The position numbers and the translations under genes were made by a program. A stretch of DNA of 64,000 nucleotides from Microbotryum violaceum (lineage: Eukaryota): positions 1,674,001 to 1,738,000 of the forward strand of contig CDLV01000010.1 in assembly GCA_001244265.2 (NCBI GenBank). The letters run 5' to 3'. Shown piece by piece: positions 15,999 through 64,000 of this stretch. Position 1 is the stretch's first letter. Each line of letters opens with the position of its first letter. A model generated the notes under the pieces. The model was not told the DNA's origin and ran no database searches. It saw only the letters and a list, made by a program, of their open reading frames with translations.

Positions 15999-18761
15999 AT
16001 GGTCGACCCCAAGCCCGACTACATCATCGTGTTTGACCCGCAACACGTGCCCAAACCCCGATCCGGCAAGCAATCTTCATCGTCCCCGCACCCCAAGAAG
16101 CAGGACAAGGCCCAAACGCAGGCGGCGCTACAGACCGAATATGAGAGCCTGATCGCCGCACTCGAATCCAGCGGATTCGAGGTCACCGGGAGACCGGGAG
16201 CAAAGGGCACCCAGCAGATCTTGCTCTTTGTCCGGGCAAACGAGGACCGGCTGCAGGCCGAAGTGCATCGTGAGAGGTGAGTCAAACAGAACACGAAGAA
16301 TGCCGAAAGCTTGAGACCGTAGATTGAGTGTGAATGTGCTCTATTCGGTGCTTCGTCCGGAACCACCGATAGATTGTCCGACTGGCTTCATGGAGTTGCT
16401 TCGAAGAGGGCCTCACCCAAAACGGCTCGGGATTTTGTCTCCGAGCCCATTACCCCTGCCGAACGACTACGACTCGTGTACTCGATTCTTAGCTCGCCCG
16501 AAGCAGCCATCACCGGGGTCTCGGTCACGTCTTCCGCCTCGTCGGGTCGTACGGTGGGGCTCGACCCCGTTCCTTCACCCGCCAACTTCCCGCACGTCAT
16601 TTCCGTCTTCCCTCCCCACGACGTCGGTTTCAATCAACGCTGGCTCAAAAGCTGGTCCAGTCGATCCCACGCGCTCAAACCAATCCCACGCGCCGAACTG
16701 GACGAGATCAAGGATCACCTCGGCGAGAAAATCGCACTCTATTTTGCCTTCCTCCGCTACTATTTTGCTTCGTTGCTCTACCCCGCCTTGATGGGCATGA
16801 GCTTCTATTTGCTGGGTCTTGCGTACCACCCAATCTACAGCATCGGCATGGTCGGTTGGTCGATCTACTTCATCGAGACCTGGAGGATTCAGGAAAAAAT
16901 GCTGTCGGTCGAGTGGGGGACTTACAACATCCACACCGTCGAGAGCGAGCGTGCCGAGTTTCACGGGGACACACAGATCGTCGATCCCGTCACAGGCGTG
17001 GAACATGCTTACTTCCCCTTTTTGAAGACGTTCGCAAGACAGTTGATGACCATCCCCGTCTTACTGGCCTTTGCAACTGTCCTCGTTGCGCTCATCTCGA
17101 CGATCTACGTCACCGAGACCCTTTTCGGGGAAGTTTACGAGGGTCCAGCAAAGCGGTACTTGACACTGGTACCGACAGTCATGTTTGCTGGGCTAGTTCC
17201 ACAAGTTATCGCTTTGTGAGTTTGAATGGCGGCGGCGTTGCCGCTTTCGCGCCGAAGCTGACATTAAGAACAATCATGCCAGATGGGGCACGACCGCTCA
17301 GAGGCTGACCAAGTTCGAGAACCACACCCATCAAACCGAACATGACCAATCCTTGACGCTCAAGACGTTTGCGCTCAACTTCTTCGTCGCCTACGGATCA
17401 CTCGTACTCACATCTTATGTCTACATTCCCTTCGGATCCGTTCTGGTCCCGTACATCTTGGGAGTGCTACCGTCCAAACACGCCCAGAGGCTTTCTTCCA
17501 CGTCGGTTATGAGCCCGAATGGGAAGAAGGACTTCAGCATCAATTCGAGCAAGCTGCACACTCAGATTGTCGCGTACACTTTGACGAACCAAGTCGTCGG
17601 TGCCTTCACCGAGATTGGTCTGCCTTTCGTTCTGTCCTTCGCCAAGAAGGAAGTAGCCAAAGTGCAAGAGAAGCGAGCGGGTGCGAATTCGCCTTCGCAT
17701 CTCAAGCGCGGGATGGACGACCTGAGCGAGCACGAATACTTGGAGAGGATCCGGGACGAATCTCAATTGCCCGTATACGACGTTTTGGGGGACTACGCAG
17801 AGATGGTGTTGCAGTTCGGGTACCAGGCGCTGTTTTCCGTCATTTGGCCCATCGCGCCGCTGTTTGCGTACCTCAACAACTTTGTGAGTGATTTTGGTTT
17901 CGGCTCCCTCCTTTGTGTCACACTAAACATTCTTCGTGGATTAACAGATCGAATTGAGGTCGGACGCCTTCAAGATCACTCATCAGCACCGCCGGCCGAT
18001 TCCAACTCGAGTCGCCACCATAGGCCCTTGGCTTGATGTGCTCGTGAGTGCACGGTCACGCTTCAATAGGGTATACCTGTAAACTGACGGAGCTCTTCGA
18101 GCAAACTTGGCAGAGCTTCATCTCGTACCTGGCTGCTTTCACAAACTCGTCCTTGGTCTACCTCTACCGACCCCACTGTGATGTCTCGTCACCCACGAGA
18201 GCGTTCCTCTCGAGCCTTTGGTCGCGAGGAAATGACACTCTGGCCGCGAACGCGACGCATATCCACGCAACGTCCAACATGCATCTTGCAACTCGAGGTG
18301 ACCCGGGAGGCTTTTTCAAAGCCGCCTTGGATGGCGCCAACGCCGTGCAGGCGACCAAAGATGCCCTCTGCGGAGGGCTGAGTTCGACTCCTTCGAACCT
18401 CCCTCTCATCACCTCGACGTTGTTCTCAGCATTGCTCGTAGCGCTCTTCTCGGAGCACATCTATCTCGTTGTACGAACGACAGTGAGGTTCATTCTTCAC
18501 CGGACGAGCTGGATTGGGTCCGAAGCGGCCAATCACGTGCGACGTAGTGGGCTCGAGCTGAGGAGAAACTATCTGGACGAGTTGGGCCTGAAGAAGACCC
18601 CGAAGGAATTGGCCGAGGACAGCGGGAAAATTTCAAAGACAGAAGATATTGCCGAGAACGAGAAGATGACTGAGGGCACGAAAAGAGCCGAGCGAGGGGG
18701 GTTCTGGAAAGGGCAAGACAAGGGTTTGGTCGAGTTGAAGAGGGTCGCTAAAATCGATTGA
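15999..18761 (+). CDS. Anoctamin/TMEM16 family scramblase or channel (Ist2-related), multi-exon
   Basis: DEIKDHLGEKIALYFAFL, LTKFENH, DYAEMVLQFGY, IELRSDAFKI, RVATIGPWL; multiple transmembrane segments. Confidence 0.92.
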
Positions 18762-40899: not shown

Positions 40900-41495
40900 T
40901 CATTGGAATGGGGGTGATCTGGGGTCGTGCGGTCGCGAGGGGGGGCCGACTTTGGTAACCGAAAAGGGGTTTGGAATCCGCGGTGGAGATCCAGCGCAGA
41001 CGGGTACAAGGGGTATGTGATTGCTGCGGTCGCAGGGGGTTACATTCCCCCTTTGGACCACGTGAATCATTTGGATTGAGCGGGATGTTTGTGCCATCGG
41101 AGGCCTTGTTCGACGCGTCTCAAAGAATTAAGGGGCTTCAAGGAGTATGGCGGTCTCAGGGGGGGGCTGAAGTCAAAAGATCGAAGAAGGTTCAACTGTA
41201 CGACTATAATCGGATTCGCCTGTACAACACATGTACCATCACCAACGACTCATCCATCTTTTCCCGATTCCTTGTGTATAATCTTCAACCTTCCTTTCAT
41301 TCGTCTCTGGGAGGGAGCAACCGTGGGTGGGGGGACTTGAACTCGGATGTATCGGGTTGGTCTGTTCTGCTAGTTACAACGCATCAAGCGGCGGTTGTGG
41401 TCATCATCGTGCATGCTGGGTAGCATCTCCTTTAGTTCCGTAGGGAGTTTTCTCGTCTTGCAAATTAGCGATGAGTTTCATACAAAAAAAAAAAA
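40900..41495 (+). mobile_element. LINE 3'-end fragment with poly(A), unit 1
   Basis: Ends in A12 (41484-41495); 3' UTR blocks resemble 46975-47182; 5' boundary uncertain. Confidence 0.6.
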
Positions 41496-41498
41496 TTT

Positions 41499-41806
41499 AG
41501 AAGGTTCAACTGTACAATTATGATCGGATTCACCTGTACAACACATGTACCACCACCAACATTTCTTCCATCGTTTCCAGATTCCCCGTGTATTATCTTT
41601 AATCTTCCTTTCATTCGTCTCTGGGAGGGAGCAACCGTGGGTGGGGGGACTTGAACTCGGATGTATCGGGTTGGTCTGTTCTGCTAGTTACAACGCATCA
41701 AGCGGCGGTTGTGGTCATCATCGTGCATACTGGGTAGCATCTCCTTTAGTTCCGTAGGGGGTTTCTCGTCTTGCAAATTAGCAATGAGTTTCATACAAAA
41801 AAAAAA
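41499..41806 (+). mobile_element. LINE 3'-end fragment with poly(A), unit 2 (direct repeat of 41185-41495)
   Basis: About 310 bp highly similar direct repeat ending in A10. Confidence 0.7.
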
Positions 41807-43487
41807 TACATCGGCCATTCTCATACAAGAGCACTTCATCAGACCGCACCTCTGGCAACTCATCAAGGACGAGTACGAGGGCAAGCTCTTCATCAACCAA
41901 CATTGTCTGACTCTAATTCCGGCTGACTCCCCCCTGATCGACGCCGAGCTCTTGCGCACCCACTCGGCACTCGACGGCCGGCTCCTCGTCACGTCCTTTC
42001 GTCTGCGGGGCGACATCAAAATTCTAGAAATCAACAACGTTTACGCGCCCGTTGACCCAAAGCAACGAGCGAAATTCTTTGACAAACTCTTATTTCACAA
42101 AACACAGAAATCCCACCTCCGACTCCTTGGCGGTGATCTCAACGACTGCCCGCGCCCAGAAGTCGATCGGCGGAACCAAAGTCGGCGCGGCCACCACTGG
42201 CCAATCCTGATCGGCAAGCTCGACTCGGCCTACACGGACTGCATCCGCTACAAACACCCCATCACCCCATCCTTCACTCGACCTAATCCCAATCGCAAGC
42301 GACCCAACTCCTTCTCCCGGCTTGACTACTTTCTCCTGCAACGGACACACCAAAAAAGACTCGATCAGGCCTCGACGATCTACGACTATCCCAAGGAGCT
42401 TTCCGATCACCGACCGGTCTTGATTGTGCTGGCTCTCTCAGACGATCCTGATGCGACCCTCCACAGCTCAGCCTACCTACCACATCAAACCAACTACATC
42501 GAATCAACACCACAACCTTTAAGACGGTGGAATTCCAGCGGATGATGGAAGGATGGTTGGAAGGGGCAAGCGGGGAGGAACCGGTGGGGGAGCTCGAGGT
42601 CATTCTGAAGGCGTGCAGGGATAGGGGTGGGGAGATGGCGAGGAGGTTGCATCGGGAGCGGACGGAACGGATGGAGTATTTGGTGGGGAGGGTGCAGGAT
42701 CTGGAGGCGATACCGGAATGGGGGGAGGCGGAAACGGCAGAATGGACAAGGACGTCCGAGGAACTCAAGCGGGCGGTCGAGGAGCGCGCGCGCCTACTCC
42801 GGATCCGAGCCCACGTACCCGAGATCGCCTCCGAGGAACGACTGTCGCGGCCGGTCCACGCCAAGCTCGCGGCGCGAAACTCGGACTCCAAGATCACAGC
42901 ACTGCGCTTGAGCAACGGAGAGCTAACGCATGACATTGATGTCGCTCTTGACACACGCAGGCGCATTTCCAGCGCCTCTACCACATCGAGCCTCGTGACC
43001 CGGACCGCGTCGACCGACTTCGGGACGATTTCCTCGCGCCGATCAGGGCGGCGCGGACTTGCGACGACCCGCGCTCGGATCCTCTCTTTCTGCGCCGACT
43101 CTCGGAATCCCAGATCGACTTACTCCAGCGACCAATCACCGAGGACGAGGTCGTGGCCGCGATCGGGACGACGCACCCGGGGCGATCGCCGGGACCGTCG
43201 GGCGTGCCCTACGAACTCTACCAGACCGCACCCTATTAGGAGCAATATACCACTGCACCAAAAGGAGAGGCACCTCTACTTCAGGGAGCGCATATTGTCC
43301 TAGAAGTGAGATGGAGGGAGGTTCAACACCCCCCTGTGCGCGAAGCTGAAGAGCTTGTGGCAGTGGGTGCGGCTTTGAAGGCAAGTGCGGGGCGCGCACG
43401 AAATTTGCCTGACCCAGGGGGTGCGGCTTTGGAGGCAAGTGCGGGGTGCGCGCAAAATTGCCTGACCCCAGGGGGGCTTGAACCCAT

Positions 43488-43518
<31 letters not shown>

Positions 43519-46500
43519 TATTAGGAGCAATATACCACTGCACCAAAAGGAGAGGCACCTCTATAACCTATTCGATCAACTCTACTACGTCAGCGATGTA
43601 GTTATAGCCAAGAGTGATTAATATTACAACATACCTATTCGATCAACTCTACTACGTCAGCGATGTAGTTATAGCCAAGAGTGATGAATAGGAAGCTAAC
43701 AGTATGGGAGCCGCGCGCCTCAAGTCCTCAGCCTGGGACCCTTGGCTTAACCCTTGGCCAGGCTCGTTCCCTGCGCTTAAGTCCCAGGCTCGCTCCGCGC
43801 GCCTAAGACCTGAGCCGGCGCGCCTAAGTCCCAGGCTCGCTCCGCGCGCCTAAGTCCTGCGCCCGCGCGCCTAAGTCCTGAGCCGGTGCGCCTGGCCCGT
43901 TCCGCGCGCCTAAGTCCTCTGCCGATGCGCCCGGCTCGCTCCGCGCGCCTAAGACCTGTGCCGATGCGCCCGGCTTGATCCGCGCGCCTAAGTCCTGAGC
44001 CGAGCGGAGAGTGGATTCTTCACACACCCAAGGCGTGGGCCAAGGTGCTGACCAAGGCCTACAACGCGATGATAGAGCGAGGCTCACTCTCTCCCAAGCA
44101 GGGCCAAGGACTCGTGCGCCTCATCTTCAAGCGACACAAGAAGAATGCTGATCGCGCCGAACTTTCGGCGTACCGGCCGATCACCCTGCGCGAGTGCGAT
44201 TACAAGATCTTTACCAAGGTCTATGTCGCCCGTTTGAACCAAATTCTACCGGATCTCCTCCCGCCGCAGCAGCATGGATTCGTCAAGGACCGCCGATCGG
44301 CTGACGCTGCACTACACCTTCGTCTCCTGATCGAGGAAGTTGGCGCGCGCAGGACCGAGTTCCCCGCGGCCGCACTCTTATCTCTTGACCAATCGTCCGC
44401 CTACGACCTCGTCAAGCATGACTGGATCTTTGCCATCTTTGACGCTCTGGGCGCTCCTGCCACCTTTCTTCGCGTGCTGAGGATGCTCTACTCGGGTGAC
44501 TCGACCTCGGCCCGCTACATCATCAATGGGTTCTTGACGGCGCCGGTACGACTGACGTGTGGGCTCGGCCAAGGGGACCCGGCGTCGTCGTCGGTCTGGG
44601 ACATCGTGTTTCAGCCGTTTCTGGATGCTCTACACCGTCGAAACATCGCGCTGAATCTCTCCATACCTGCACTTCATCCGTACCCACAGAGCCGCGCCAT
44701 TACATCGCTTGCTTTTGCCGATGACGTTGTCGTCGCCGTCGCGGGCTTGGGGTCACTCAACTTGCTCGATGACCTGGCGCTCGACTGGAGGCATGCAACG
44801 AATGGCCGGCTCAACACGGACAAGACGGTCGTCCTACCGATCGGACGCCGCTGGGACCCGGGGCAACGCCCACTCGTCGTCAAGGCCGCAGGCAAGTCGC
44901 TCGAGTGGATCGGCCTCCCCTTTGACCCGAGCGGCGACACCGAACTCGCCTACGCGAATCTCATCGAACGCCTCGAGGCGACGCTGGAAGGGGTTCAGCA
45001 TCGCTGGCTCACACACCACACCCGTGCCTTTTACGTCAATCGGTACGCCATCCCCAAGATCCTGCACTTCCTTGCAGCCGACATCCCGCCGCCCAAAGTC
45101 GTCAAGAAGCTCGATGACATGCTCGTCGATTTCGTCCGTGGGGGCAAGGGCAGGACCAGCTACGGCAGAGATATCGTGTTCACAGCCAAGCTCAAGGGGG
45201 GACTCGGGGTGATCAGGATGCAGGACGTCGTGGACGCGGTTGCGGCACGGATCTGGGACGTTCTTCTCGGCGGTTTGGGCGCGATCTGGCAAGGACTTGC
45301 GCGCGTGGCACTCCAGCGAGCTCAGTCCGACCTCGACCTGGCCACCGATCTCTGGCCACATCCATCCACTCCCATCCCCAGCGACCTCCATCCCCGATGG
45401 CGAGCAGCATTGGGGGTTCCGAAACAGCAAGACGCGCAGGTCAACCCGAGGACCTTGACCACCGCGAACCTGCTCGCGCTTCCCACCTTGCTCGGCAGCC
45501 TCCACACCCCCATCAGAGGGAGACAGACCATCGACGCGGTTCATATACCTGACTACCTTCGTCTCCAGGGCTACCCGAAGGTGGCGGATCTCTACCGGCG
45601 CGAGTTGTATGCGGGTGGGGGGTTTCACCTTTGGACGCCGCCGGCGGATGTGCTCGGCGACAACAGCGAGTACGATCGACGCGGGCTCCCGCAGCGACTG
45701 GCAATCGCGGCCTGGTACCGGTTCACTGTCGATCGACACAAGAACACGCCCTTGGCGGTGGCGGTGGCGGCAGGACGGCTCAACGTGCCTCCCCGGATCG
45801 GCACCAGCGCACCGCTCGAGGCGATTATCCCCAAGCCCGTGGCCCGCTTTGCAATGGAGCAGCGCCTTCCGGACCCGGTGCTTCCACAGCAGGCGAGCCA
45901 GTACAAGCTGCTGAACATGGCTCGACCGTACACCATCCGTCGCATCCGCCGGGTCCTGAACGCGAAGGCCTTTACCAACACGCTCGGGCTCAAGGGACCA
46001 CCGCAGCCGGACGACCTCAGGAGCTTTTGGAAGGCGGTCAACTCGAAGGCACTGACGGCGAGGGAGAGGGAAGTTTGGTTCAAGCTGATTCTCCGCTTCA
46101 CCCCGACGCGCAAGCTGCAACACCAACAGAATCACGACACTTCTCCGCGTGCCTCGTCTGCGAGGCGCCGGTGGACGACGCCGACCACTACTTTTTCGAC
46201 TGCGTTGACTCTGGGAACGTTTGGATCGCGGCAAGGAGCGTGCTCTGCGACGCACTGGGGCTCGACACGATCGACAACACGCATTACACGGCTGTTCAAC
46301 GCATGTTCGGACTTCCGAAGCTCAAGGCCAGTCTACGCGATCAAGAAGGAGCGGGAGGACGATCGAAATATTCACCGGGCTGGTCTTGGAGATGATCAGC
46401 AGCGGGGGGTGGGGATGCAGAAGTGGGGGACGAAGATGGAGGGTGTTGTGAGGAGGAGGATCATCTTGGAGGAGAGGTTGAAGCTGAGGGCGGGAGGAGC

Positions 46501-47182
46501 TTGGGGAGGAGAGGGCAGTAGAGGCTGGGTTCGACTTTCCCCCACCACCACCACACACACACACCAAATTCTCGTGACATCATTTTCTCCTACTGTACAC
46601 TAAATAGATCGCTTTCATCTTTCATTTGTTACAGGTTCACCGTTGCGGATCATGGACCATCTCGCGATTTGGCGTCGACTCGGTGTGGCTCGCGCTCTTC
46701 GGCTTCGGGGTTCTGAGTCAAGGGAGGGATCAGCGGACACAGGCAGAAAGTCGGCTTTGAGGGGCCAGGGACTGCCGATGGGGGAGGTTTTGAGGGACCT
46801 TCACTGCGTCTTGTTGTGGCTGAGCAGAGACTTGGAGCGTCGAGGGTCGTGGTGGTTGCGCAGTCGTGCTCTTGTCTTCGTCTCGACCGAGTGGGAAGTG
46901 GCTGTGGGGTGGGCCTTCTGTCATTAGTACATTTCTTTTCTTTCTTTTTTTCTCTTCATCTCTCTTTCTCTCTCTCATTAGTCTCCTGGGGGGAGCAACC
47001 GCTTGGCTAGGGCATTTGAATCCGAATCTCGGATTGGTGGACTTGGCTCGTTTCTCGCACTTTTGCGGGCGGTTTGTGTTATCATCGTAGTCTTCCATCT
47101 AGTTTTTTTCCGTAGGCCAAAACAGGGGGAACAGGAACTGGGGGCAATATGATGAACGTTTTCTACAAAAAAAAAAAAAAAA
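41807..47182 (+). mobile_element. L1/Tx1-type LINE, 5'-truncated ORF2 (APE endonuclease, RT, zinc finger), 3' UTR and poly(A); frameshifted and interrupted at 43234-44024
   Basis: APE motifs IQEH, NVYAP, GGDLN, SRLDYF, SDH; RT motifs [23 protein letters not shown]...HYFFDC; A16 tail at 47167-47182. Confidence 0.92.
43234..44024 (-). mobile_element. Chimeric LTR insertion: family A copia LTR (43569-44024) fused to a TRIM-like mini-element (43234-43563)
   Basis: 5 bp TSD CACCC at 43229-43233 and 44025-44029; removal restores the LINE frame LYQTAPKAWAK; mini LTR 43234-43328, PPT, PBS 43488-43518, partial LTR 43519-43563. Confidence 0.85.
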
Positions 47183-47977
47183 CATCTTTCATCTTTCATC
47201 TTTATCGCACTACCCTACCTCGGCAAACGTCAATACATCGAATACATCAACCGCTACATCAGCTATCGACCCAATGTCCGACCAGGCACCGCCTGATCCG
47301 GGCCGCGGCCCTCCGGAGCCGGCAGCGACGGGGCAACCACGTGGTGACGCGGGGGCGGAGGCCGATGCCGCCGAGGGACCAGGGAACCCCGGCCTAGCGC
47401 TGTACCAGGAAAAGCGTGATGAAGAGAAGAAGAGGAAGGAGGATGTCGCGAGGATCCTGAAGATGATCAGTGTCGAAGATGGCACACGCCAGGGCACCCG
47501 CATCCTTGTGCTCAAAGAAGCACTCGGCTTCGGCAAGGACCGGGCCACCTCCCTGCGCTTTAGCGCACTCAATGCAACGAAACCAATCGCCGACACGTCT
47601 GGTGCCGTTCTTGAAGTCACGTTCGAACACACCGGTGTGGCCACTGAACGCGAGAAGTCCGAGTTGTACTCGAAGGTGCTCCGTACCCTGTCGCCCGACA
47701 CGTCGTTGTGTTTTAACCTGCCCGCAGGAGTTGTCCTCCCCCCGAGCTCCAGAAATACGCTCCAGTCATCCATGGAGTCGCACCGGAGTCGATCATCCAA
47801 AACGGCAACACCCGGTTCAAGTTCGTGGTGCGCTGCGCTAGCGCAGCGGCGCTCGACCAAGTCCACGACGCGGCGACCAAGATCGAGTGGAAACGCTCCT
47901 TTGCCCAAGTCCGCAAGCGCTTGGCGTTCGTCAAGAACGTCGTCGAACTGCGTTTCATCATCAGTCCTGAGGCTGAA
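47183..47977 (+). mobile_element. Probable 5' UTR and ORF1 start of a further LINE, frameshifted and interrupted
   Basis: Begins right after the previous poly(A) with (CATCTTT)3; ATG at 47274, Pro/Gly-rich then charged segment; ORF1 identity inferred from position. Confidence 0.5.
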
Positions 47978-48226
47978 TATATGAACCACACAACTGCTCA
48001 AGCGGTGGCGAGTCTCTGATCGACGGACCAGGGAGACCAGACCAATGAAGTTGCTTAGGATTACACACCTGCTCAAGCGGTGGTGAGTCTCTGATCGACG
48101 GACCAGGGAGACCAGACCAATGAAGTTGCTTGAGCAGGAGAGTGAGAAGCGCGGAACCAGTTGGCTGGGGCAAGTGCGCAACCAGGTCCGTGCCCCAGTG
48201 CCAAGCGCACGGACCCAGCTAAGAAG
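47978..48226 (+). mobile_element. Partial, diverged copy of the TIR element family seen at 60436-60975
   Basis: Two tandem units CTGCTCAAGCGGTGG..GAGTCTCTGATCGA..GGAGACCAGACCAA..GAAGTTGCTT; cut by the LTR at 48227. Confidence 0.7.
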
Positions 48227-51139
<2,913 letters not shown>

Positions 51140-51261
51140 TATTCGATCAACTCTACTACGTCAGCGATGTAGTTATAGCCAAGAGTGATGAATATTACAA
51201 CATACCTATTCGATCAACTCTACTACGTCAGCGATGTAGTTATAGCCAAGAGTGATGAATA
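51140..51261 (-). repeat. Duplicated ~55 bp LTR terminus, family A (also 43569-43690)
   Basis: Two copies of TATTCGATCAACTC...GAGTGATGAATA separated by TTACAACATACC. Confidence 0.9.
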
Positions 51262-51472
51262 GGAAGCTAACAGTATGGGAGCCCCGCGCCTCAAGTCCTC
51301 AGCCTGGGACCCTTGGGCTTAACCCTTGGGCCAGGCTCGTTCCCTGCGCTTAAGTCCCAGGCTCGCTCCGCGCGCCTAAGTCCTGCGCCCGCGCGCCTAA
51401 GTCCTGAGCCGGTGCGCCTGGCTCGTTCCGCGCGCCTAAGTCCTCTGCCGAGCGGAGAGTGGATTCTTCACA

Positions 51473-54400
51473 CCCCCCCCCACGCGAACGCGAGGTAGAC
51501 TTGAGCCGTGGGTGACGCGTCCGTAGACCTAGAGTATAGCAATGTGCACCGAAAATCTTGGGACCTAGCGCCTTGGTGAATATGTCTGCAACCATGTTCG
51601 CTGTGCCGACGTGTGAGAGAGAGATCTCGCCTTGGTTGACCATGTCGCGGACAAAGTGCTCGCGGAGGCGTATGTGTCGAGTGCCCGAAGTGCGAACGGG
51701 GTCGTGAGCGACGGCGGCGGCGGCCTCGTTGTCGGTGAAAATGTGGGCTGCATCGACCGGGCGAACGTGGAGCTCGGAGAGGAGTTGCGTAAGGTAAATC
51801 GCTTCCTTACCAGCATGCGACAAGGCGAGGTATTCGGCATCAGTGGTGGAATCTGCTACCCGAGTCTGACACTTCGATGACCAAGAGACGGCGGAGCCGG
51901 CCAAGTAAAAGACGAAGCCCATTGTGGAGATGGACGTGTCGACGCAGGCACCCCAGTTCGCATCAGAATAGCCAACCACACCCGTAATTTTGGCGGGGCC
52001 ACAGGCGTAGAGTAGCTCATCGCGGTACGTAGCGCGAAGGTAGCGAAGGACGTGTTTGACGGCAATCCAATGGCGGCGGCCGGGGTTGTTGGCGAACCGG
52101 GACAGGTACGAGACGGCGAAGGCAATGTCGGGCCGAGTGCCAAGTGAAATGTATAGGAGGGAGCCGATGGCTTGCAGGTACCACGACCGAATGCGTTCCG
52201 TTCCCTGACCCGGTACAGCCGTGAGCAAGAGGCCGGGCGTCATTGGCACCGTAGCGCCGCGCGTTGTGGTGTCGAAGTGGAAGCGGGCGAGCACGTCCAT
52301 GATGTAGCGCTCCTGGGATAGAGCAATGGAGCCGTCTTCCAGGCGTCGAATTTGGATGCCGAGGATGTATTCTGCGGGGCCGAGCCGTTTGACGCCGTAT
52401 CGTTGTTCGAGGCCGGAGATGACACGCTCGATCTCGTTGAGGGCGGGGCTGACAATGAGGAGATCGTCGACATACAATGCGATATAATGGGGCTGCTTCT
52501 GATCATCAATGCGAGAGTAAATGCAGTGATCAGTGCCCGTTGCCTTGTACCCAAGACTTCGAAGTGATGTGTCGATGTGGCGATTCCAGATGCGACCGGC
52601 CTGCTTAAGACCGTAGATCGAGCGTCGCAGCCGGAGAACCTTGTCGCCCGGGAAGTCGAAGCCTCGTGGCGTCGTCATCCAGATATCGTGATCGAGCTCG
52701 CCGTGAAGGTAAGCCTTGTCGATGTCGGCCTGATGAACGTGGTAGCCATTGGCAGCGGCAAGGGCGAGAAGGCAGCGAATGGAGGAGAAACGGGCGACGG
52801 GTGCGAACGTCTCCGAGAAGTCGATGCCGTCGCGCTGGCGATTTCCCTGTGCAACAAGGCGTGCCTTCCGCCCTGTGATATCACCCTGTGCATCGCGCTT
52901 GGTCTTCCAGACAAATTTGGAGGTGACGATGGTGGCGCCCGGCGGTACTGAGGAGCGAGGCTCGATGGTGAACACCTTGAAATCGTCACGCATGGCGGTG
53001 AACTCGTCTGAGGCAGCTTGAGCCCAGAGGTCGTGCTCGTCGCTGGACATCGCTTCACGCCAGGTCTGGGGATCGCTAGTGATCGATTTGACGGGTTCAA
53101 TGGCTTCGAGGGCGGGTCGTCGTCGTCCGTGGCGATGAAAGCGCGATGATGGCGAGAGAGGAAATCGATCTCATCAGGAGAGTCGTCATCGGGGGGCTGC
53201 CAGGCGGCAGCGGCGGGCGTGGGTGTCACCGAGGTGTCGTCGTCGGATCGATGTACGTCCATCAGGTTGAGGCGAACCGCGGTGTCGGAGTTCAGGAGGT
53301 CAAGCGGATCATCCGAGTCATCGATGGACGGTCCCCGGCCGAGGACGTGGCGGGAGACGAAAACGGGCGCGAACGACTGAGACGACGAGGGGCTGGTATC
53401 TGTAGAATTAAGTAAGGATCCGCCAGTGTACCCTGGGGCCACGTCAACGGCGCTCATGGCAGAATCATCAAGGGGGATGAGACGTCCATGTGCGCCGACC
53501 TTACTAGTGGGGTCCTCGTCTTGACGGCGGGGGCGGGCGTGTCGGCGGGGCGGGCATGTCGGCGGGGGCGTGCGTGTCGGCGGGGGCGTGCGTGTCGGCG
53601 GGAATGATGAACTGGCGTTCGGCGTCGTCCGCATCGACGGGCGTGCTGACTGGTAGGCCGGGGAAGTCGTCGTCGAGGAAGGTGGCATTTCGGCCAAGCA
53701 CAACCTTGTTGGTGGAATGGTCGAAGAAACGGAAAGCCTTGGAGGCGAGGTCGTAACCAGTGAAAATCACGCGCGCGGCCTTGGGGTCGAGCTTGCTGCG
53801 AAGGTCCGGCGCGACTGTGAGCCAGGCCGCGCAGCCGAACGGGTGAAGGGCGGTGGCCGTGGTGCGTTGGCCGTTCCAAACGAATTGTGGGGTCTGTTTG
53901 GCCAAAGCTGAGTGTGAGCACCTGTTTTTGCAATAAACGAAGTATGCAGCCGCTTCGTCCCAAAAGGTGGCCGGCAGGTGAGAGTCGGCAAGGAGGGCGA
54001 GGACGCCCTCGACGATGGAGAGGTTGACACGTTCGGCACGACCGTTTTGCTGAGGCATGTATGGAATGGAGTATTGGCGACGAATGCCCCTGGACTGGCA
54101 GAACTCCGTGAACGCGTTGGATCGGTATTCGCCGCCGTTGTCGGTGCAAAGGATCCGTAAACGCGCGTTCGTTTCTAACTCCACTTCGGCGAGCCAAGTC
54201 TGGAAGGTCGGGAAGACGTCGCTTTTGTGATCGATTGCGTATGCCCAGAGTTTGCGAGAGTGGTCGTCAAGGAAGGTGACGAGATAGCGTTTCCCGGTCA
54301 AGGACGGAGTGGGGAACGACAGGACATCGCTGTGCACGAGGCCAAGTCTCTCGGGGGAATGTGACTCCGAGTCGGGAAAAGGAAGACGATGGCCTTTGGA

Positions 54401-56041
54401 ACCAAGGCAAGCATTGCAAACAAACTCTTCTACGTCTTTGTCACTGTACCCGGCCCCAAACCCGTCCAGCAAACCCGCAGCGATCATCTTCTGTATAGAG
54501 GATGGAGCAAGATGGCCGAGGCAGCGGTGGAGGGTAAGTAGGGGCACGGTAGACTCAGAGCGTGAGAGAAAGGCAAGCTGCTGACATTTGGTGTGATCCG
54601 CGTCCAGGAGGTAGAGACCGTCGTTAACCCGTGTACCGTGAGCGATGGCCTGGCCGTCCTTGGTGATGTCGATGCTGTCGCTGGTGAAAGCGAGTCGGAC
54701 GCGGTCGGTGTCACAAAGGCGAGAGACGGAGAGAAGGTTGACGTGAAGGCCCGGCGCGTGCAGAACGCCGCGCAACGTGATCGGGTGTCCGGTGTTGGCA
54801 ACAAACGCTACATCCCCCATACCAATGGCCGTGATACCGCCGGCAATGCCGCCAATCTTGGTGTGTGCCGTTTGACGATAAGTCGTGAACAGGGAGCGGT
54901 CGGCGACCATGTGAGTCGTCGCGCCCGAGTCGACGACGAAGGCGTCGGTCGGGAGTTGGCGGCGGGCAAACAGGCAGGAGGCGAAATAGCCGACGTTCGG
55001 TCGGTGAGCCGTGGAAGAAGACAAGTCGTCCTGGGTGTCGTCGCTGGTACGTGTCTGTTGACCCCGGTTCTTGCAGTCGAGGGCCCAGTGACCTCGCTTT
55101 TGGCAGCGGCGGCAAGGGCCGGTGGGCGGATGCTTTGCACGTGAAGTGCAGTCTCGCAGGCGGTGGCGGGGGCGCGGCAGGCGGGGCAAGAGGGGGCGTC
55201 GGCAAGCATGGCCGAATGCGAGGTCGAGAGGCCGGCGGATCGGAGCTGAACGCGGATACGGTCCGTTAAAGTCGTGAGCTCCGGGAGTTCGCGCTGGGCG
55301 CGCTGCTCGTCCGTGAACGTGAGACGGAAGCTGTCTAGACAGGACGGTACCATGGCGAGAATGTGCGTGGCGAGGACGTCGTTCAGTGATGTCTTGGCGT
55401 CGCGAATCTCTTGAGCAATGGCCATGTATTCTCGCAGCCAGGTGTCATAGGCCTCGACCGAGGCGGGCATCTTCCGAAAGTCCCAAAGGCGGGCGAATAA
55501 TTCGAGAGTGCGAGTGGCGTCGTTTGGTGCGAAACGAGCCTTGAGTGCGTTGAAGATGCGTGGCGCCGACAGGTCGTCGCTTGGGATGGCATCGAGGGTT
55601 GCTGAGACGTCGGCGGAGTCGATCGAGCCGACGATAATTTCCCGCGCGGCGTCGTCGCGAGCGGCCAGCTGGTCTGCCGTCCACGTCGGGGAACGACGCC
55701 ATCAAGGACGTAACCACGAATCTGATTTGGAAGCGTGAGCCGGAGTTGGCGCAACCAGTTTGTGAATGACTTGGAGCCATCTAGGCGAGCGTGCTTGGGA
55801 AAGACGACTTTTGATGCGGTGGTGGTAGTGGCAGTGGGCTGCGAGGCAGCGGCGGTAGAGGCGGTGGCGGCAGGGGGTGCGAGGGCGGTGGCGGCAGGGG
55901 CTGCGAGGCGGCGACGGCAGGGTGCTGCGAGGCCTGCAGGGCGGCGATCTGGGCCTGCAGGGTAGCGAGTTGATCGCTGATCGAAGACGCAAGAGGGCTG
56001 GGGTCCCTGGGGGACGAAGGCGTGGTGGGGTCGCTGTCCAT
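51473..56041 (-). pseudogene. Copia gag-pol polyprotein, broken by single-base indels
   Basis: ORF pieces 56041-55781, 55470-54808, 55189-53504 and 53050-51350 in Gag-PR-IN-RT-RH order. Confidence 0.85.
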
Positions 56042-56111
56042 TGTGCGATGGTGCGATGGACGTGGGCGGCTCGAGTGGCTGGGCTCGAGGAAAAATGCGA
56101 GCGAGCGGCGG

Positions 56112-56137
56112 GCTGGTAGCTCGTTGGGCTTATAACC
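56112..56137 (-). promoter_or_regulatory. Primer binding site complementary to the 5' half (anticodon arm) of tRNA-iMet
   Basis: GGTTATAAGCCCAACGAGCTACCAGC directly after the 5' LTR; one mismatch to the copy at 43493-43518; same type as Drosophila copia and yeast Ty5. Confidence 0.85.
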
Positions 56138-56212
56138 TATTCGATCAACTCTACTACGTCAGCGATGTAGTTATAGCCAAGAGTGATGAATATTACAACA
56201 TACAGTATGGGA

Positions 56213-56580
56213 GCGCGCGCGCCTAAGTCCTCAGCCTGGGACCCTTGGGCTTAACCCTTGGCCAGGCTCGTTCCCTGCGCTTAAGTCCAGGCTCGCTCCG
56301 CGCGCCTAAGACCTGAGCCGGCGCGCCTAAGTCCCAGGCTCGCTCCGCGCGCCTAAGTCCTGCGCCGCGCGCCTAAGTCCTGAGCCGGTGCGCCTGGCCC
56401 GTTCCGCGCGCCTAAGTCCTCTGCCGATGCGCCCAGCTCGCTCCGCGCGCCTAAGACCTGAGCCGGTGCGCCTGGCTCGTTCGCGCGCGCCTAAGTCCTC
56501 TGCCGATGCGCCCGGCTCGCTCAGCGCGCCTAAGACCTGTGCCGATGCGCCCGGCTTGATCCCGCGCCTAAGTCCTGAGC
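56213..56580. repeat. GC-rich GCGCGCCTAAG(T/A)CC minisatellite in family A LTR U3
   Basis: About 11 units here, fewer in the other family A LTRs. Confidence 0.8.
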
Positions 56581-56604
56581 CGAGCGGAGAGTGGATTCTT
56601 CACA

Positions 56605-58785
<2,181 letters not shown>

Positions 58786-58940: not shown

Positions 58941-61900
58941 TATTCGATCAACTCTACTACGTCAGCGATGTAGTTATAGCCAAGAGTGATGAATAGGAAG
59001 CTAACAACAAGAGAGCCGCGCGCTCACGTCCTCAGGCTGCGAACCTTGGGGCTGAGCCAATGGCCCAGGCTCGCCCTGCGCGCCTAAGTCCTGGGGCTGT
59101 GTGCGCCTGGCTCGCTCCGCGCGCCTAAGTCCTGAGTCAATGCGCCTTGCTTGTTCCGCGCGCCCTAAGTCCTGGGGGTGCGCCAGGCAAGCGCGCGCCT
59201 AAGTCCTGGGCCGGTGCGCCAGGCTTGCTCTGCGCGCCTAAGTCCTGAGCCGAGCGGAGAGTGGATTCCTCACACCCCCCCCACGCGAACGCGAGGTAGA
59301 CTTGAGCCGTGGGTGTCGCGTCCGGAGGCCCAGAGCATAGCAATGCGTACCAAAAATCTTGGGACCTAGCGCTTTGGTGAATAGGTCCGCAACCATGTTC
59401 GCTGTGCCAACGTGGGAGAGGGATATATCGCCCTGGTTGACCATGTCGCGGACGAAGTGCTCGCGGAGACGGATGTGCGAGTGCCGGAGGTGCGAACGGG
59501 GTCGTGAGCGACGGCGGCCGCGGCCTCGTTGTCGGTGAAGATGTGGGCTGCATCGATCGGGCGAACATGGAGCTCGGAGAGGAGTTGTGTGAGGTAAATG
59601 GCCTCCTTACCAGCGTGCGACAAGGCGAGGTATTCGGCATCAGTGGTGGAATCTGCTATTCGAGTCTGACGCTTCGATGACCAAGAGACAGCGGAGCCGG
59701 CCAAGTAAAAGACGAAGCCCATTGTGGAGATTGACGTGTCAACGCAGGCACCCCAGTTTGCATCGGAATAGCCAACCACCCCCGTAATCTTGGTTGGACC
59801 GCAGGCGTAGAGTAGCTCATCACGGTACGTAGCGCGAAGGTAGCAAAGGACGTGTTTGACGGCGACCCAATGGCGGCGGCCGGGGTTGTTGGCGAACCGG
59901 GACAGGTACGAGACGGCGAAGGCAATGTCGGGGCAAGTGCCGAGTGAAATGTATAGGAGGGAGCCGATGGCTTGCAGGTACCACGACCGAATGCGTTCCG
60001 TTCCCTGACCCGGTACTGCCGTGAGCGAGAGGCCGGGCGTCATTGGCACCGTAGCGCCGCGCGTTGTGGTGTCGAAGTGAAAGCGGGCAAGCACGTCCAT
60101 GATGTAGCGCTCCTGAGATAAAGCAATGGAGCCGTCTTCCAGGCGTCGAATCTGGATGCCGAGGATGTATTCTGCAGGCCGAGTTGTTTGACGCCGTATC
60201 GCTGTTCGAGGCCGGAGATGACACGCTCAATCTCGTCGAGGGCGGGGCTGATAATGAGGAGATCGTCGACATATAATGCGATATAATGGGGCTGCTTCTG
60301 ATCATCAACGCGAGAGTAAATGCAGTGATCAGTGCCCGTTGCCGTGTACCCAAGACTCCTGAGCAATGTGTCAATGTGGCGATTCCAGATGCGACCGGCC
60401 TGCTTAAGACCGTAGATCGAGCGACGCAGCCGGAGTGTGATGTTGTCACGCCTGCTCAAGCGGTGGTAAGTCTCTGATCGAAGGACCAAGGGAGACCAGA
60501 CCAAGAAGTTGCTTGTTACACACCGCTCAAGCGGTGGTAAGTCTCTGATCGAAGGACCAAGGGAGACCAGACCAAGAAGTTGCTTGAGCAGGAGAGAAAC
60601 CAGAGTGGGGCCATTTGGCTGGGCCCAAGTCAGCCCAGCCAAAGTCAGGCGCACGGACCTGGCCCAGGTGCAGAGACCAGGCCCAGAGTGGGAGAGCTAA
60701 GGTGGTGAAAAGTAGGCCAAAAGTGATCAAAACGAAGAGAGGAGGATTTTGAGGTAGGTACAAGATACAAGAAGGACATGAAGGAGATATTTGATCTCAC
60801 ACTTACCACCGCTTGAGCAGGTGAGCACTACTCTTACTATCATCTTTCACCCCTCTAGATGTGGTAACTTACTGTAGTGCTTGAGCAGTGTGTAACAAGC
60901 AACTTCTTGGTCTGGTCTCCCTTGGTCCTTCGATCAGAGACTTACCACCGCTTGAGCAGGCGTGACAACATCACAAAGCGGATCATCCGAGTCCTCGATG
61001 GACGGTACCCCCCCTGAGGACGGGGCGGGAGACGAAATCGGGGCGAGCGACGGAGACGACGAGGGCTGGTATCTGTAGAATTAAGTAAGGATCCGCCAGT
61101 GTACCCTGGGGCCACGTCAACGGCGCTCATGGCAGAATCATCAAGAGGGGATGAGACGTCCATGTGCGCCGACCTTACTAGTGGGGTCCTCGTCTTGACG
61201 GCGGGAGCGGGTGTGGCGGCGGTGGCGTGCGTGTTGGCGTGAATGACAAACTGGCGTTCGGCGTCGTCCGCATCGACGGGCGTGTTGACTGGTAGGCCAG
61301 GGAAGTCGTCGTCGAGGAAGGTGGCATTTCGGCCAAGCACAACCCTGTTGGTGGAATGGTCGAAGAACCGGAAAGCCTTGGAAGCGAGGTCGTAACCAGT
61401 AAAAATCACGCGCGCGGCCTTGGGGTCGAGCTTGCTGCGAAGGTCCGGCGCGACCGTGAGCCAGGCCGCGCAGCCGAACGGGTGAAGGGCGGTGGTCGTG
61501 GTGCGTTGGCCGTTCCAAACGAATTGTGGAGTCTGTTTGGCCAAAGCTGAGTGTGAGCACCTGTTTTTGCAATAAACGAAGTATGCAGCGCTTCATCCCA
61601 AAAAGTGGCCGGCAGGTGGGAGTCAGCAAGGAGGGCGAGGACGCCCTCGACGATGGAGAGGTTGACACGTTCGGCACGGCCGTTTTGCTGAGGCGTATAT
61701 GGAATAGAGTATTGGCAACGAATGCCCCTGGACTGGCAGAACTCCGTGAACGCGTTGGATCGGTATTCGCCGCCGTTGTCGGTGCGGAGGATTTGTAGAC
61801 GCGCGTCCGTTTCTAACTCCACTTCGGCGAGCCAAGTCTGGAAGGTCGGGAAGACGTCGCTTTTGTGATCGATTGCGTATGCCCAAAGTTTGCGAGAGTG

Positions 61901-63649: not shown

Positions 63650-63845
63650 CGATGAGCGAGAAGGCCGGTAGCGAGACATCCAACATGGTGTTGCAAGTCG
63701 GCGGTCGAGTCGGCCGTGTCGGGCCTGTTGCTGTTCTCGAGAGGTTTCTTGCAGTCGAATGACCAGTGATTCTTCTTGCAGGAGCGACAAGGGCCTGGCG
63801 GCGGGTGTTTCGCTCTCACAGTGCACTGCGCCACACGGTGCAAAG
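63650..63845 (-). mobile_element. Gag zinc-knuckle fragment of a different copia element
   Basis: HRVAQC...[16 protein letters not shown]...VGCLAT, homologous to but diverged from family A Gag. Confidence 0.7.
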
Positions 63846-64000
63846 TGTGATGTTGTCACGCCTGCTCAAGCGGTGGTAAGTCTCTGATCGAAGGACCAAG
63901 GGAGACCAGACAAGAAGTTGCTTGTTACACACCTGCTCAAGCACTACAGTAAGTTACCACATCTAGAGGGTGAAAGATGATAGTAAGAGTACTGCTCACC
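63846..64000. mobile_element. Another copy of the TIR element, opposite orientation, running off the window
   Basis: Nearly the reverse complement of 60820-60975. Confidence 0.88.

Follow-up and report, generated by a model that had tools for sequence, protein, structure and literature searches.

In the window, by which we mean the whole stretch of 64,000 nucleotides analysed here, a nest of transposable elements begins at about 43.5 kb and reaches the end, and Pfam places Ty1/copia genes on the minus strand. The coding frames and the parts of one copia element, referred to as element B, are the following:

53504 to 55444, minus strand: open reading frame with zf-CCHC (zinc knuckle), Pol_BBD, gag_pre-integrs, rve and SH3_retrovirus domains (Pfam)
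51350 to 53170, minus strand: open reading frame with an RVT_2 domain (1e-58, Pfam)
49279 to 51138, minus strand: open reading frame, also with an RVT_2 domain (Pfam)
51473 to 56111, minus strand: internal region of element B, with leader, gag with zinc knuckle, protease-like barrel, integrase, RVT_2 and a G-rich polypurine tract adjoining the 3′ LTR
56112 to 56137, minus strand: PBS of element B, GGTTATAAGCCCAACGAGCTACCAGC, whose first G supplies the last base of the AG acceptor in unit U1 (see below)
43493 to 43518: second copy of the PBS, with the anticodon CAT, following the LTR A5 and a 50-nt insert

On the minus strand, element B reads 5′ LTR (B5), PBS, leader, gag-pol, G-run and 3′ LTR (B3). 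It has direct LTRs, a PBS after the 5′ LTR and a polypurine tract (a G-run before TGTGAAG) ahead of the 3′ LTR, and its domain order of gag, protease, integrase and reverse transcriptase, with the integrase preceding a reverse transcriptase of the RVT_2 type, is that of Ty1/copia elements (Pseudoviridae). The reading frames are broken or split, and no matching 5-bp target-site duplication surrounds the element, the flanks being GTGCG on the 5′ side and GACAT on the 3′ side. Judged from its sequence, the PBS looks complementary to the D-arm and the anticodon arm of tRNA-Met. ARAGORN predicted no tRNA genes in the window, and Rfam gave no matches at gathering score in the window and none at E≤10 in positions 43430 to 43600.

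Seven LTRs in the window begin with TGTGARGARTCCACTCTC, three of a family A, one of an element D and three of a family B′:

56138 to 56604, minus strand: B5, the 5′ LTR of element B, family A, 467 bp, one-unit form with U1 only; on the plus strand its body lies at 56138 to 56191, its linker GTATGTTGTAAT at 56192 to 56203 and its junction with X (CCCATACT) between 56203 and 56204
51140 to 51472, minus strand: B3, the 3′ LTR of element B, family A, 333 bp, two units; U1 at 51139 to 51205 (67 nt including the flanking G), U2 at 51206 to 51271 (66 nt)
43569 to 44024, minus strand: A5, a family-A 5′ LTR, 456 bp, two units; U1 at 43569 to 43634 plus the G at 43568, U2 at 43635 to 43700
58941 to 59274, minus strand: 3′ LTR of element D, one-unit form with U2 only (GTTAGCTTCCT and body), about 89–91% identical to family A
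48227 to 48608, minus strand: family B′, the 3′ LTR of a partial copia element C, with the two-unit layout and another body (TTAGCTTCC, body, TATAG, then GTATGCTGAAATAG, body)
56621 to 56997, minus strand: family B′, two units, 16 nt upstream of the start of B5
58403 to 58785, plus strand: family B′, the 3′ LTR of a copia fragment E, two units, differing from the other two B′ LTRs by 7–8 body substitutions, each of which both its units carry

B5 is thus the 5′ LTR of the same element whose 3′ LTR (51140) an earlier, sequence-only reading of this DNA had used as a comparison copy; the LTR of D did not figure in that reading. Outside large and 1-nt indels, the family-A LTRs are nearly identical, with 384 matches and 2 mismatches between A5 and B5, 328 and 3 between A5 and B3, and 262 and 2 between B5 and B3. 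Indels of 79, 78, 47, 156 and 46 nt separate copies that are only 2–3 substitutions apart, and those of 156 and 46 nt are array indels in U3 by which B5 and B3 also differ from each other. Arrays of 21-, 26-, 39-, 47- and 79-nt units around GCGCGCCTAAGTCC make up the U3 part of the LTRs (43758 to 44003, 51331 to 51419, 56262 to 56583 and 59052 to 59251), and the range of LTR sizes, 333–467 bp, is mostly due to the length of these arrays.

Several further features were seen in and around the nest. Element D contains a 540-bp insert (60436 to 60975) with 97-nt terminal inverted repeats that are 99% complementary, which looks like a miniature DNA transposon; related pieces lie at 63844 to 63911 and 47976 to 48131, and in a contig of another sequencing run (X11) its terminal sequence adjoins, as a loose end, position 55444 of a B-like element. 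An 874-aa open frame on the plus strand (43979 to 46603) encodes an RVT_1 reverse transcriptase domain (6.6e-21). It extends over the final bases at the outer end of A5 and represents a different retroelement, within or beside which the copia LTR A5 is placed. Just left of the nest, a 314-nt unit is present in two tandem copies of 93% identity (41185 to 41806). A 298-aa exon translation from the window shares 96% identity with a protein of Microbotryum saponariae and 91% with one of M. intermedium.

Tandem intron-like units in U5

Read in the sense of the element, which is the minus strand, a family-A LTR ends in the order X, U2, U1 and PBS, with the two units in tandem beside the PBS. In A5 and B3, X ends in CTCCCATACT and is followed by U2, composed of GTTAGCTTCCT and a 55-nt body (ATTCATCAC...GCTGAC...GATCGAATAG), and then by U1, composed of GTATGTTGTAAT and the same body up to GAATA. 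U2 is 66 nt long (GTTAGC...CTGAC...TAG) and U1 67 nt (GTATGT...CTGAC...TAG); the 55-nt body, identical in both, supplies CTGAC and the terminal AG, which in U1 is completed by the first G of the PBS. A 41-nt core of the unit occurs six times in the window (expected 0.00).

Families A and B′ have in common the U2 head TTAGCTTCC, the linker GTATGYTGWAAT, CTGAC and the terminal TAG, while their bodies differ; GTATG, CTGAC and the terminal TAG have been kept despite this divergence. The linker matches the window six times (0.36 expected), at 56192–56203, 51194–51205 and 43623–43634 in family A and at 48283–48294, 56677–56688 and 58718–58729 in family B′. Since the linker and the layout are common to diverged families, the two-unit layout is old and not fresh. 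The description of the LTR end as two abutting intron-like units meeting at AG/GT, given in the sequence-only reading, applies to families A and D and fails for family B′, whose upstream unit has no good GT donor. A minute upstream reading frame also sits within the linker; family A has ATG TTG TAA there, and family B′ has ATG CTG AAA TAG. Removal of U1 would take the ATG of the linker out of the leader and could separate a well-translated spliced RNA from the unspliced genomic RNA.

How similar are the two units within one LTR? In all five two-unit LTRs the bodies share an identical stretch of 50–55 nt that reaches to the LTR end, and the base after body a is a G. At each of the eight variable body sites in the three B′ LTRs, both units of an LTR carry the same base, and the sole exception to body identity is a C-to-A change in unit b of A5. 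The two bodies evolve in concert, and some process keeps overwriting one with the other. Homogenisation could proceed via out-of-register template switching between the repeats, or via switching between spliced (X-U2-PBS) and unspliced RNA of the same element, aligned where body and PBS meet. We also considered that reverse transcription itself rebuilds the spliced-out unit and rejected this, as we found among the standard strand-transfer steps no route by which a one-unit RNA would regain the linker.

Two structural observations concern the same region. The unit bodies at 56138 to 56191 and 48227 to 48280 can fold with their first and last 9–10 nt paired and CTGAC in the upper part of the hairpin, the sequences differing between the families; compared with shuffled controls, this hairpin was not significant (z-scores −0.5 to −1.8). 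Between the end of A5 and the PBS at 43493–43518 lies a 50-nt insert (43519 to 43568, minus strand), GTTATA...CTAATAG, which again runs from GT to AG, is flanked by repeated ATAGGTTATRAG and holds TGGTGCAGTGG, which resembles the kind of PBS classically paired with a tRNA 3′ end. The insert may be a third intron-shaped piece, or else filler from reverse transcription.

As a host reference we used three introns of the anoctamin gene in the window, defined by aligning protein P0001 to the gene (tblastn); de novo intron finding by open-frame continuity had proved too noisy for a host consensus and was replaced by these protein-alignment introns:

17216 to 17282: intron of 67 nt, GTGAGT, GCTGAC 21 nt before CAG
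17884 to 17947: intron of 64 nt
18044 to 18113: intron of 70 nt, GTGAGT, ACTGAC 26 nt before CAG

U1, with 67 nt, GTATGT and GCTGAC 22 nt before TAG, fits this host pattern well. U2 has 66 nt and the same branch site and acceptor (GCTGAC 22 nt before TAG), combined with a weaker donor, GTTAGC, in which T stands at +3 and C at +6. Both units lie in sense orientation in U5 beside the PBS, and both possess a GT donor, a CTRAY branch site 9–40 nt before the end and a YAG acceptor, at lengths (66 and 67 nt) that agree with the 67, 64 and 70 nt of the host introns. In Neurospora and other fungi, more than 200 GTnnnn donor variants are used and chance sites are spliced efficiently (PMC4408805). With fungal spliceosomes so permissive, the weak donor of U2 is no bar to splicing, and by the same token likeness to an intron is by itself weak evidence of a selected function.

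The missing unit of B5

In B5, X adjoins U1 directly: the sequence runs from ...CTCCCATACT into GTATGTTGTAAT and the body and then into GGTTATAAGCCC of the PBS. The absent piece measures exactly 66 nt, corresponds to 51206–51271 and 43635–43700, starts with GT and ends with AG. Alignment of the three family-A LTRs hence bore out what had been read from the sequence, namely that B5 lacks exactly GTTAGC...GCTGAC...TAG relative to the copies at 51140 and 43569. The 2-nt GT microhomology pointed out at the junction is likewise present, and this overlap permits three equivalent placements of the cut.

Judged by the outgroup LTRs, the X-linker junction of B5 is derived and reflects a loss, not a gain, since the conserved head TTAGCTTCC directly follows X in D (58941) and in all three B′ LTRs. 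A gain of U2 by the two-unit copies was rejected for this reason, the outgroup LTRs carrying the U2 head straight after X.

The loss is also out of register with the repeat. The period from body to body is 67 nt against the 66 nt missing, and the 55 identical nt do not include the junction. Slippage between homologous copies, or an unequal crossover, should remove one period and leave the junction inside the identical part, whereas B5 keeps the linker and not the U2 head, and a one-period repeat slip was ruled out on these two grounds. Had the units crossed over with each other, the product would be a U2-only form that retains the U2 head, not one with the U1 linker. We took the terminal 260 nt of the two-unit LTR B3 together with 12 nt of flank and enumerated every distinct deletion of 20–150 nt (n = 18,463). 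Only 58 of these (0.31%) can be written as GT..AG, and three (U2, U1 and U2 plus U1) combine GTNNGY, CTRAY and YAG; the observed loss is among the three.

Are the predicted forms of the LTR end also found in other material? We placed contigs of four sequencing runs (X11, X19, X17 and X15) on positions 55400 to 56620, where the strains may differ from the assembled one and the best share of words was 0.57. The U2-only form, X-U2-PBS, joined to the PBS, leader and gag of element B, is present in record 4 of X11 (439 nt, 55884 to 56319) and in record 12 of X15 (150 nt, depth 1737), and appears in the contigs of these two runs as a cluster of other letters at 56193–56201. Two-unit forms are present in X15 and X17 as joints that go back from 56191 to 56135 with the linker between them (depths 985 and 2525). 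In X15, a single contig end places the linker directly on a diverged X (27 loose letters at 56191, differing at several of the 27). Judged from this one 27-letter end, U2 seems to have been lost a second time, independently and at the same endpoints: B5 and the two-unit A5 agree at 99.5% identity while the X of the X15 contig is diverged, which suggests two separate losses. Such a recurrence of endpoints would be slender evidence for a deterministic mechanism.

No contig of the four runs crosses the exact junction of linker and X found in the window, with the provisos that contigs drop rare forms and that strains may differ. Depth falls to 0 in X17 at 56201, 56215 and 56224 and in X19 within 56220–56260, and X11 and X15 cross there only with the U2 head. 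A joint of X with the PBS, skipping U1, was absent among the joints listed in the four contig sets, which is a weak negative given that contigs drop rare forms. Metagenome scans gave no matches for the U1-only junction and none for the LTR end with PBS. In the same comparison, element B showed single-base gaps at 55687, 55896, 56224, 56259, 56286, 56364 and 56562, where most or all covering contigs carry an extra base. These seven gaps are either private losses of this copy or unpolished homopolymer errors, and single-base polishing of the assembly may be poor here.

Possible origins of the junction

The reading that we favour, at a probability of about 0.45, is that B5 is a copy of an RNA from which U2 had been spliced. 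Element RNA transcribed through U5 would be spliceable at either unit. Excision of U1, with its strong GTATGT donor, would give X-U2-PBS, and excision of U2, with its weak GTTAGC donor, would give X-U1-PBS. As the two bodies are identical, either product would keep a complete U5 end abutting the PBS and could still be reverse-transcribed and integrated, and the cDNA would fix the splice as a heritable one-unit LTR. B5 would then represent the rarer product, later joined by inter-element recombination to a body and a two-unit 3′ LTR. An RNA start upstream of U2, use of the sites by the spliceosome, packaging and copying of the spliced RNA and the recombination step are the parts of this scheme that we infer. 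Depending on where transcription begins, U2 may even lie outside the transcript.

The proposal that this LTR was copied from spliced RNA, already made in the sequence-only reading, is partly supported. It gains from the exact GT-AG loss, the host-like intron signals, the sense orientation in U5, the exclusion of slippage, the polarity of the change and the recurrence suggested by the one X15 contig; it sits poorly with B3, which retains U2. During one cycle of reverse transcription, the U5 of both LTRs is copied from the same strong-stop DNA, so the cDNA of a U2-spliced RNA should lack U2 in both LTRs. In element B, only B5 lacks it and B3 (51140–51472) keeps it. Element B is probably an inter-element recombinant, or has rearranged flanks, and is not the direct product of a splice-and-copy event, as its LTRs are discordant for U2 and for the U3 arrays and no matching target-site duplication is present. 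If it is a recombinant, the discordance for U2 says nothing either way, and a deletion in situ explains it equally well. The other product predicted by splicing, X-U2-PBS, exists in the X11 and X15 contigs; plain deletion between direct repeats, however, accounts just as well for this common U2-only form.

A deletion without splicing, through microhomology-mediated (illegitimate) loss of DNA or a non-homologous jump that takes the reverse transcriptase from the linker's 5′ end to where X ends, would make the GT..AG pattern a by-product of the unit ends. We regard this as a serious though somewhat unlikely origin. It accords with the 2-nt GT microhomology, with an LTR family extremely prone to indels (79, 78, 47, 156 and 46 nt at 2–3 substitutions) and with the discordance of the two LTRs for U2, which deletion in situ predicts; small deletions flanked by short repeats are, by the reported account of Devos and colleagues from 2002, the usual mode of decay of LTR retrotransposons. 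However, the other large indels are whole units of tandem arrays while the loss of U2 is out of register (66 versus 67 nt), and random endpoints produce full intron signals in only 3 of 18,463 cases. The base of the body hairpin lies at the unit boundary and could pause the reverse transcriptase (z −0.5 to −1.8, not significant), but a hairpin-skipping jump would leave the U2 head. Likewise, when the bodies pair out of register, the linker of 12 nt faces a U2 head of 11 nt, and bringing GT onto GT needs a bulge; an unbulged jump deletes 67 nt, not 66. A second junction of this kind in a diverged subfamily, as in the X15 contig, is not expected of a random event.

Two further origins carry much less weight. 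The junction coincides with the strong GTATGT donor, a possible site of first-step cleavage, and minus-strand strong-stop DNA could have ended at the first G of the linker, at a second start site or at an intermediate cut at GTATGT, and then transferred onto X before any splice was finished. Reverse transcriptases reportedly pause and misbehave at lariat branch points (PMC5399748). This route is wholly inferential and needs strand transfer on 2 nt of homology, and we hold it to be quite improbable. Still less credible, in our judgement, is an artefact of assembly, by which a true two-unit or U2-only locus lost 66 nt in a repeat-rich, poorly polished region. The seven single-base gaps relative to the contigs would fit an unpolished long-read consensus in a transposon nest, but the errors of such a consensus are homopolymer errors of 1–2 nt and not clean losses of 66 nt, a collapse of units would most naturally fall inside the identical bodies, removing 67 nt and keeping the U2 head, and the runs compared may come from another strain than the one assembled (best share of words 0.57).

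Relation to known systems and significance

That a retro-copy loses an intron is a textbook principle, and the Ty1 intron-marker experiment and retrotransposition indicator cassettes are said to show precise intron loss on passage through RNA. As in the Ty1 case, a GT..AG segment of the donor copy is exactly absent from its counterpart, here B5. Unlike the Ty1 marker, U2 is natural, lies in U5 beside the PBS, is one of two tandem units whose removal leaves an identical U5 end, and is known here from sequence alone. Deletion between direct repeats by template switching of the reverse transcriptase is familiar from retroviral vector studies, and Devos and colleagues in 2002 reportedly described unequal and illegitimate recombination in LTR retrotransposons. 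The copy-number variants of the tandem units resemble such events, as does the lack of matching target-site duplications, a sign of inter-element recombination. Repeat deletion, however, predicts a 67-nt loss that keeps the U2 head, which is the existing U2-only form, and not a 66-nt loss that keeps the U1 linker.

The layout also recalls the Rogers model, in which an intron is born by tandem duplication of an AGGT-containing segment. U1 has AG/GT at both ends, its 3′ part repeats the upstream exon, and its splicing would restore a single copy, a product identical to the U2-only form seen in D and in the X11 and X15 contigs. Creation of introns by such AGGT duplications has been described by Hellsten et al. 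2011 (PMC3265369), and as in those introns the last 50–55 nt of U1 repeat the stretch before its donor, so that splicing of U1 restores the unduplicated sequence. In contrast to that model, the copies here are kept identical by concerted evolution, the duplication is old, and loss of the upstream copy is not predicted. A candidate parallel for U1 and U2 is the Ty1/Copia element EVD of Arabidopsis, in which alternative splicing of an intron spanning the protease region yields a gag-only mRNA, the shGAG RNA (Oberlin et al. 2017, PMC5580714). Some transcripts of that copia element are processed by the host's splicing machinery, and sites for the U1 snRNP influence what becomes of the RNA (PMC5580714); the candidate introns of the present LTRs differ from the EVD intron in lying in the LTR and 5′ leader and leaving the coding capacity untouched. 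With the hemivirus-type Pseudoviridae of the ICTV profile (PMC8515867), copia-type elements whose PBS pairs with a short internal segment of tRNA-Met and not with the 3′ end, element B appears to share this internal pairing, an assignment made here by reading the sequence. A non-exhaustive literature search found no account of fungal LTRs whose U5 end carries introns or intron-like units in tandem.

Retroelements face a conflict with their host, which splices Pol II transcripts, and a genome that has been spliced has lost sequence permanently. Were the LTR units real introns, the layout would survive splicing, with an intact U5 end and PBS after either splice. We offer as a tentative and, as a whole, unlikely generalisation that the copia elements of anther smuts carry genuine spliceosomal introns in U5 in the form of tandem units with identical bodies, so that any splice would keep U5 joined to the PBS, one-unit isoforms would record the splice used, and template switching between spliced and unspliced RNA would keep the bodies identical. 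Should an ordinary deletion be the origin of the junction, the finding would be a minor LTR length variant. Should splicing be the origin, one-unit LTRs would be fossils from which splice-site choice can be read from DNA alone, and they would form a natural, genome-wide record of how the spliceosome treats the genomic RNA of a retrotransposon that is spliced without losing replication. Such a record would bear on the origin of new introns from duplications. Work in Cryptococcus reportedly shows that fungal defences sense stalled spliceosomes on transposon RNA, and units in U5, if spliceable, would bear on these defences as well.
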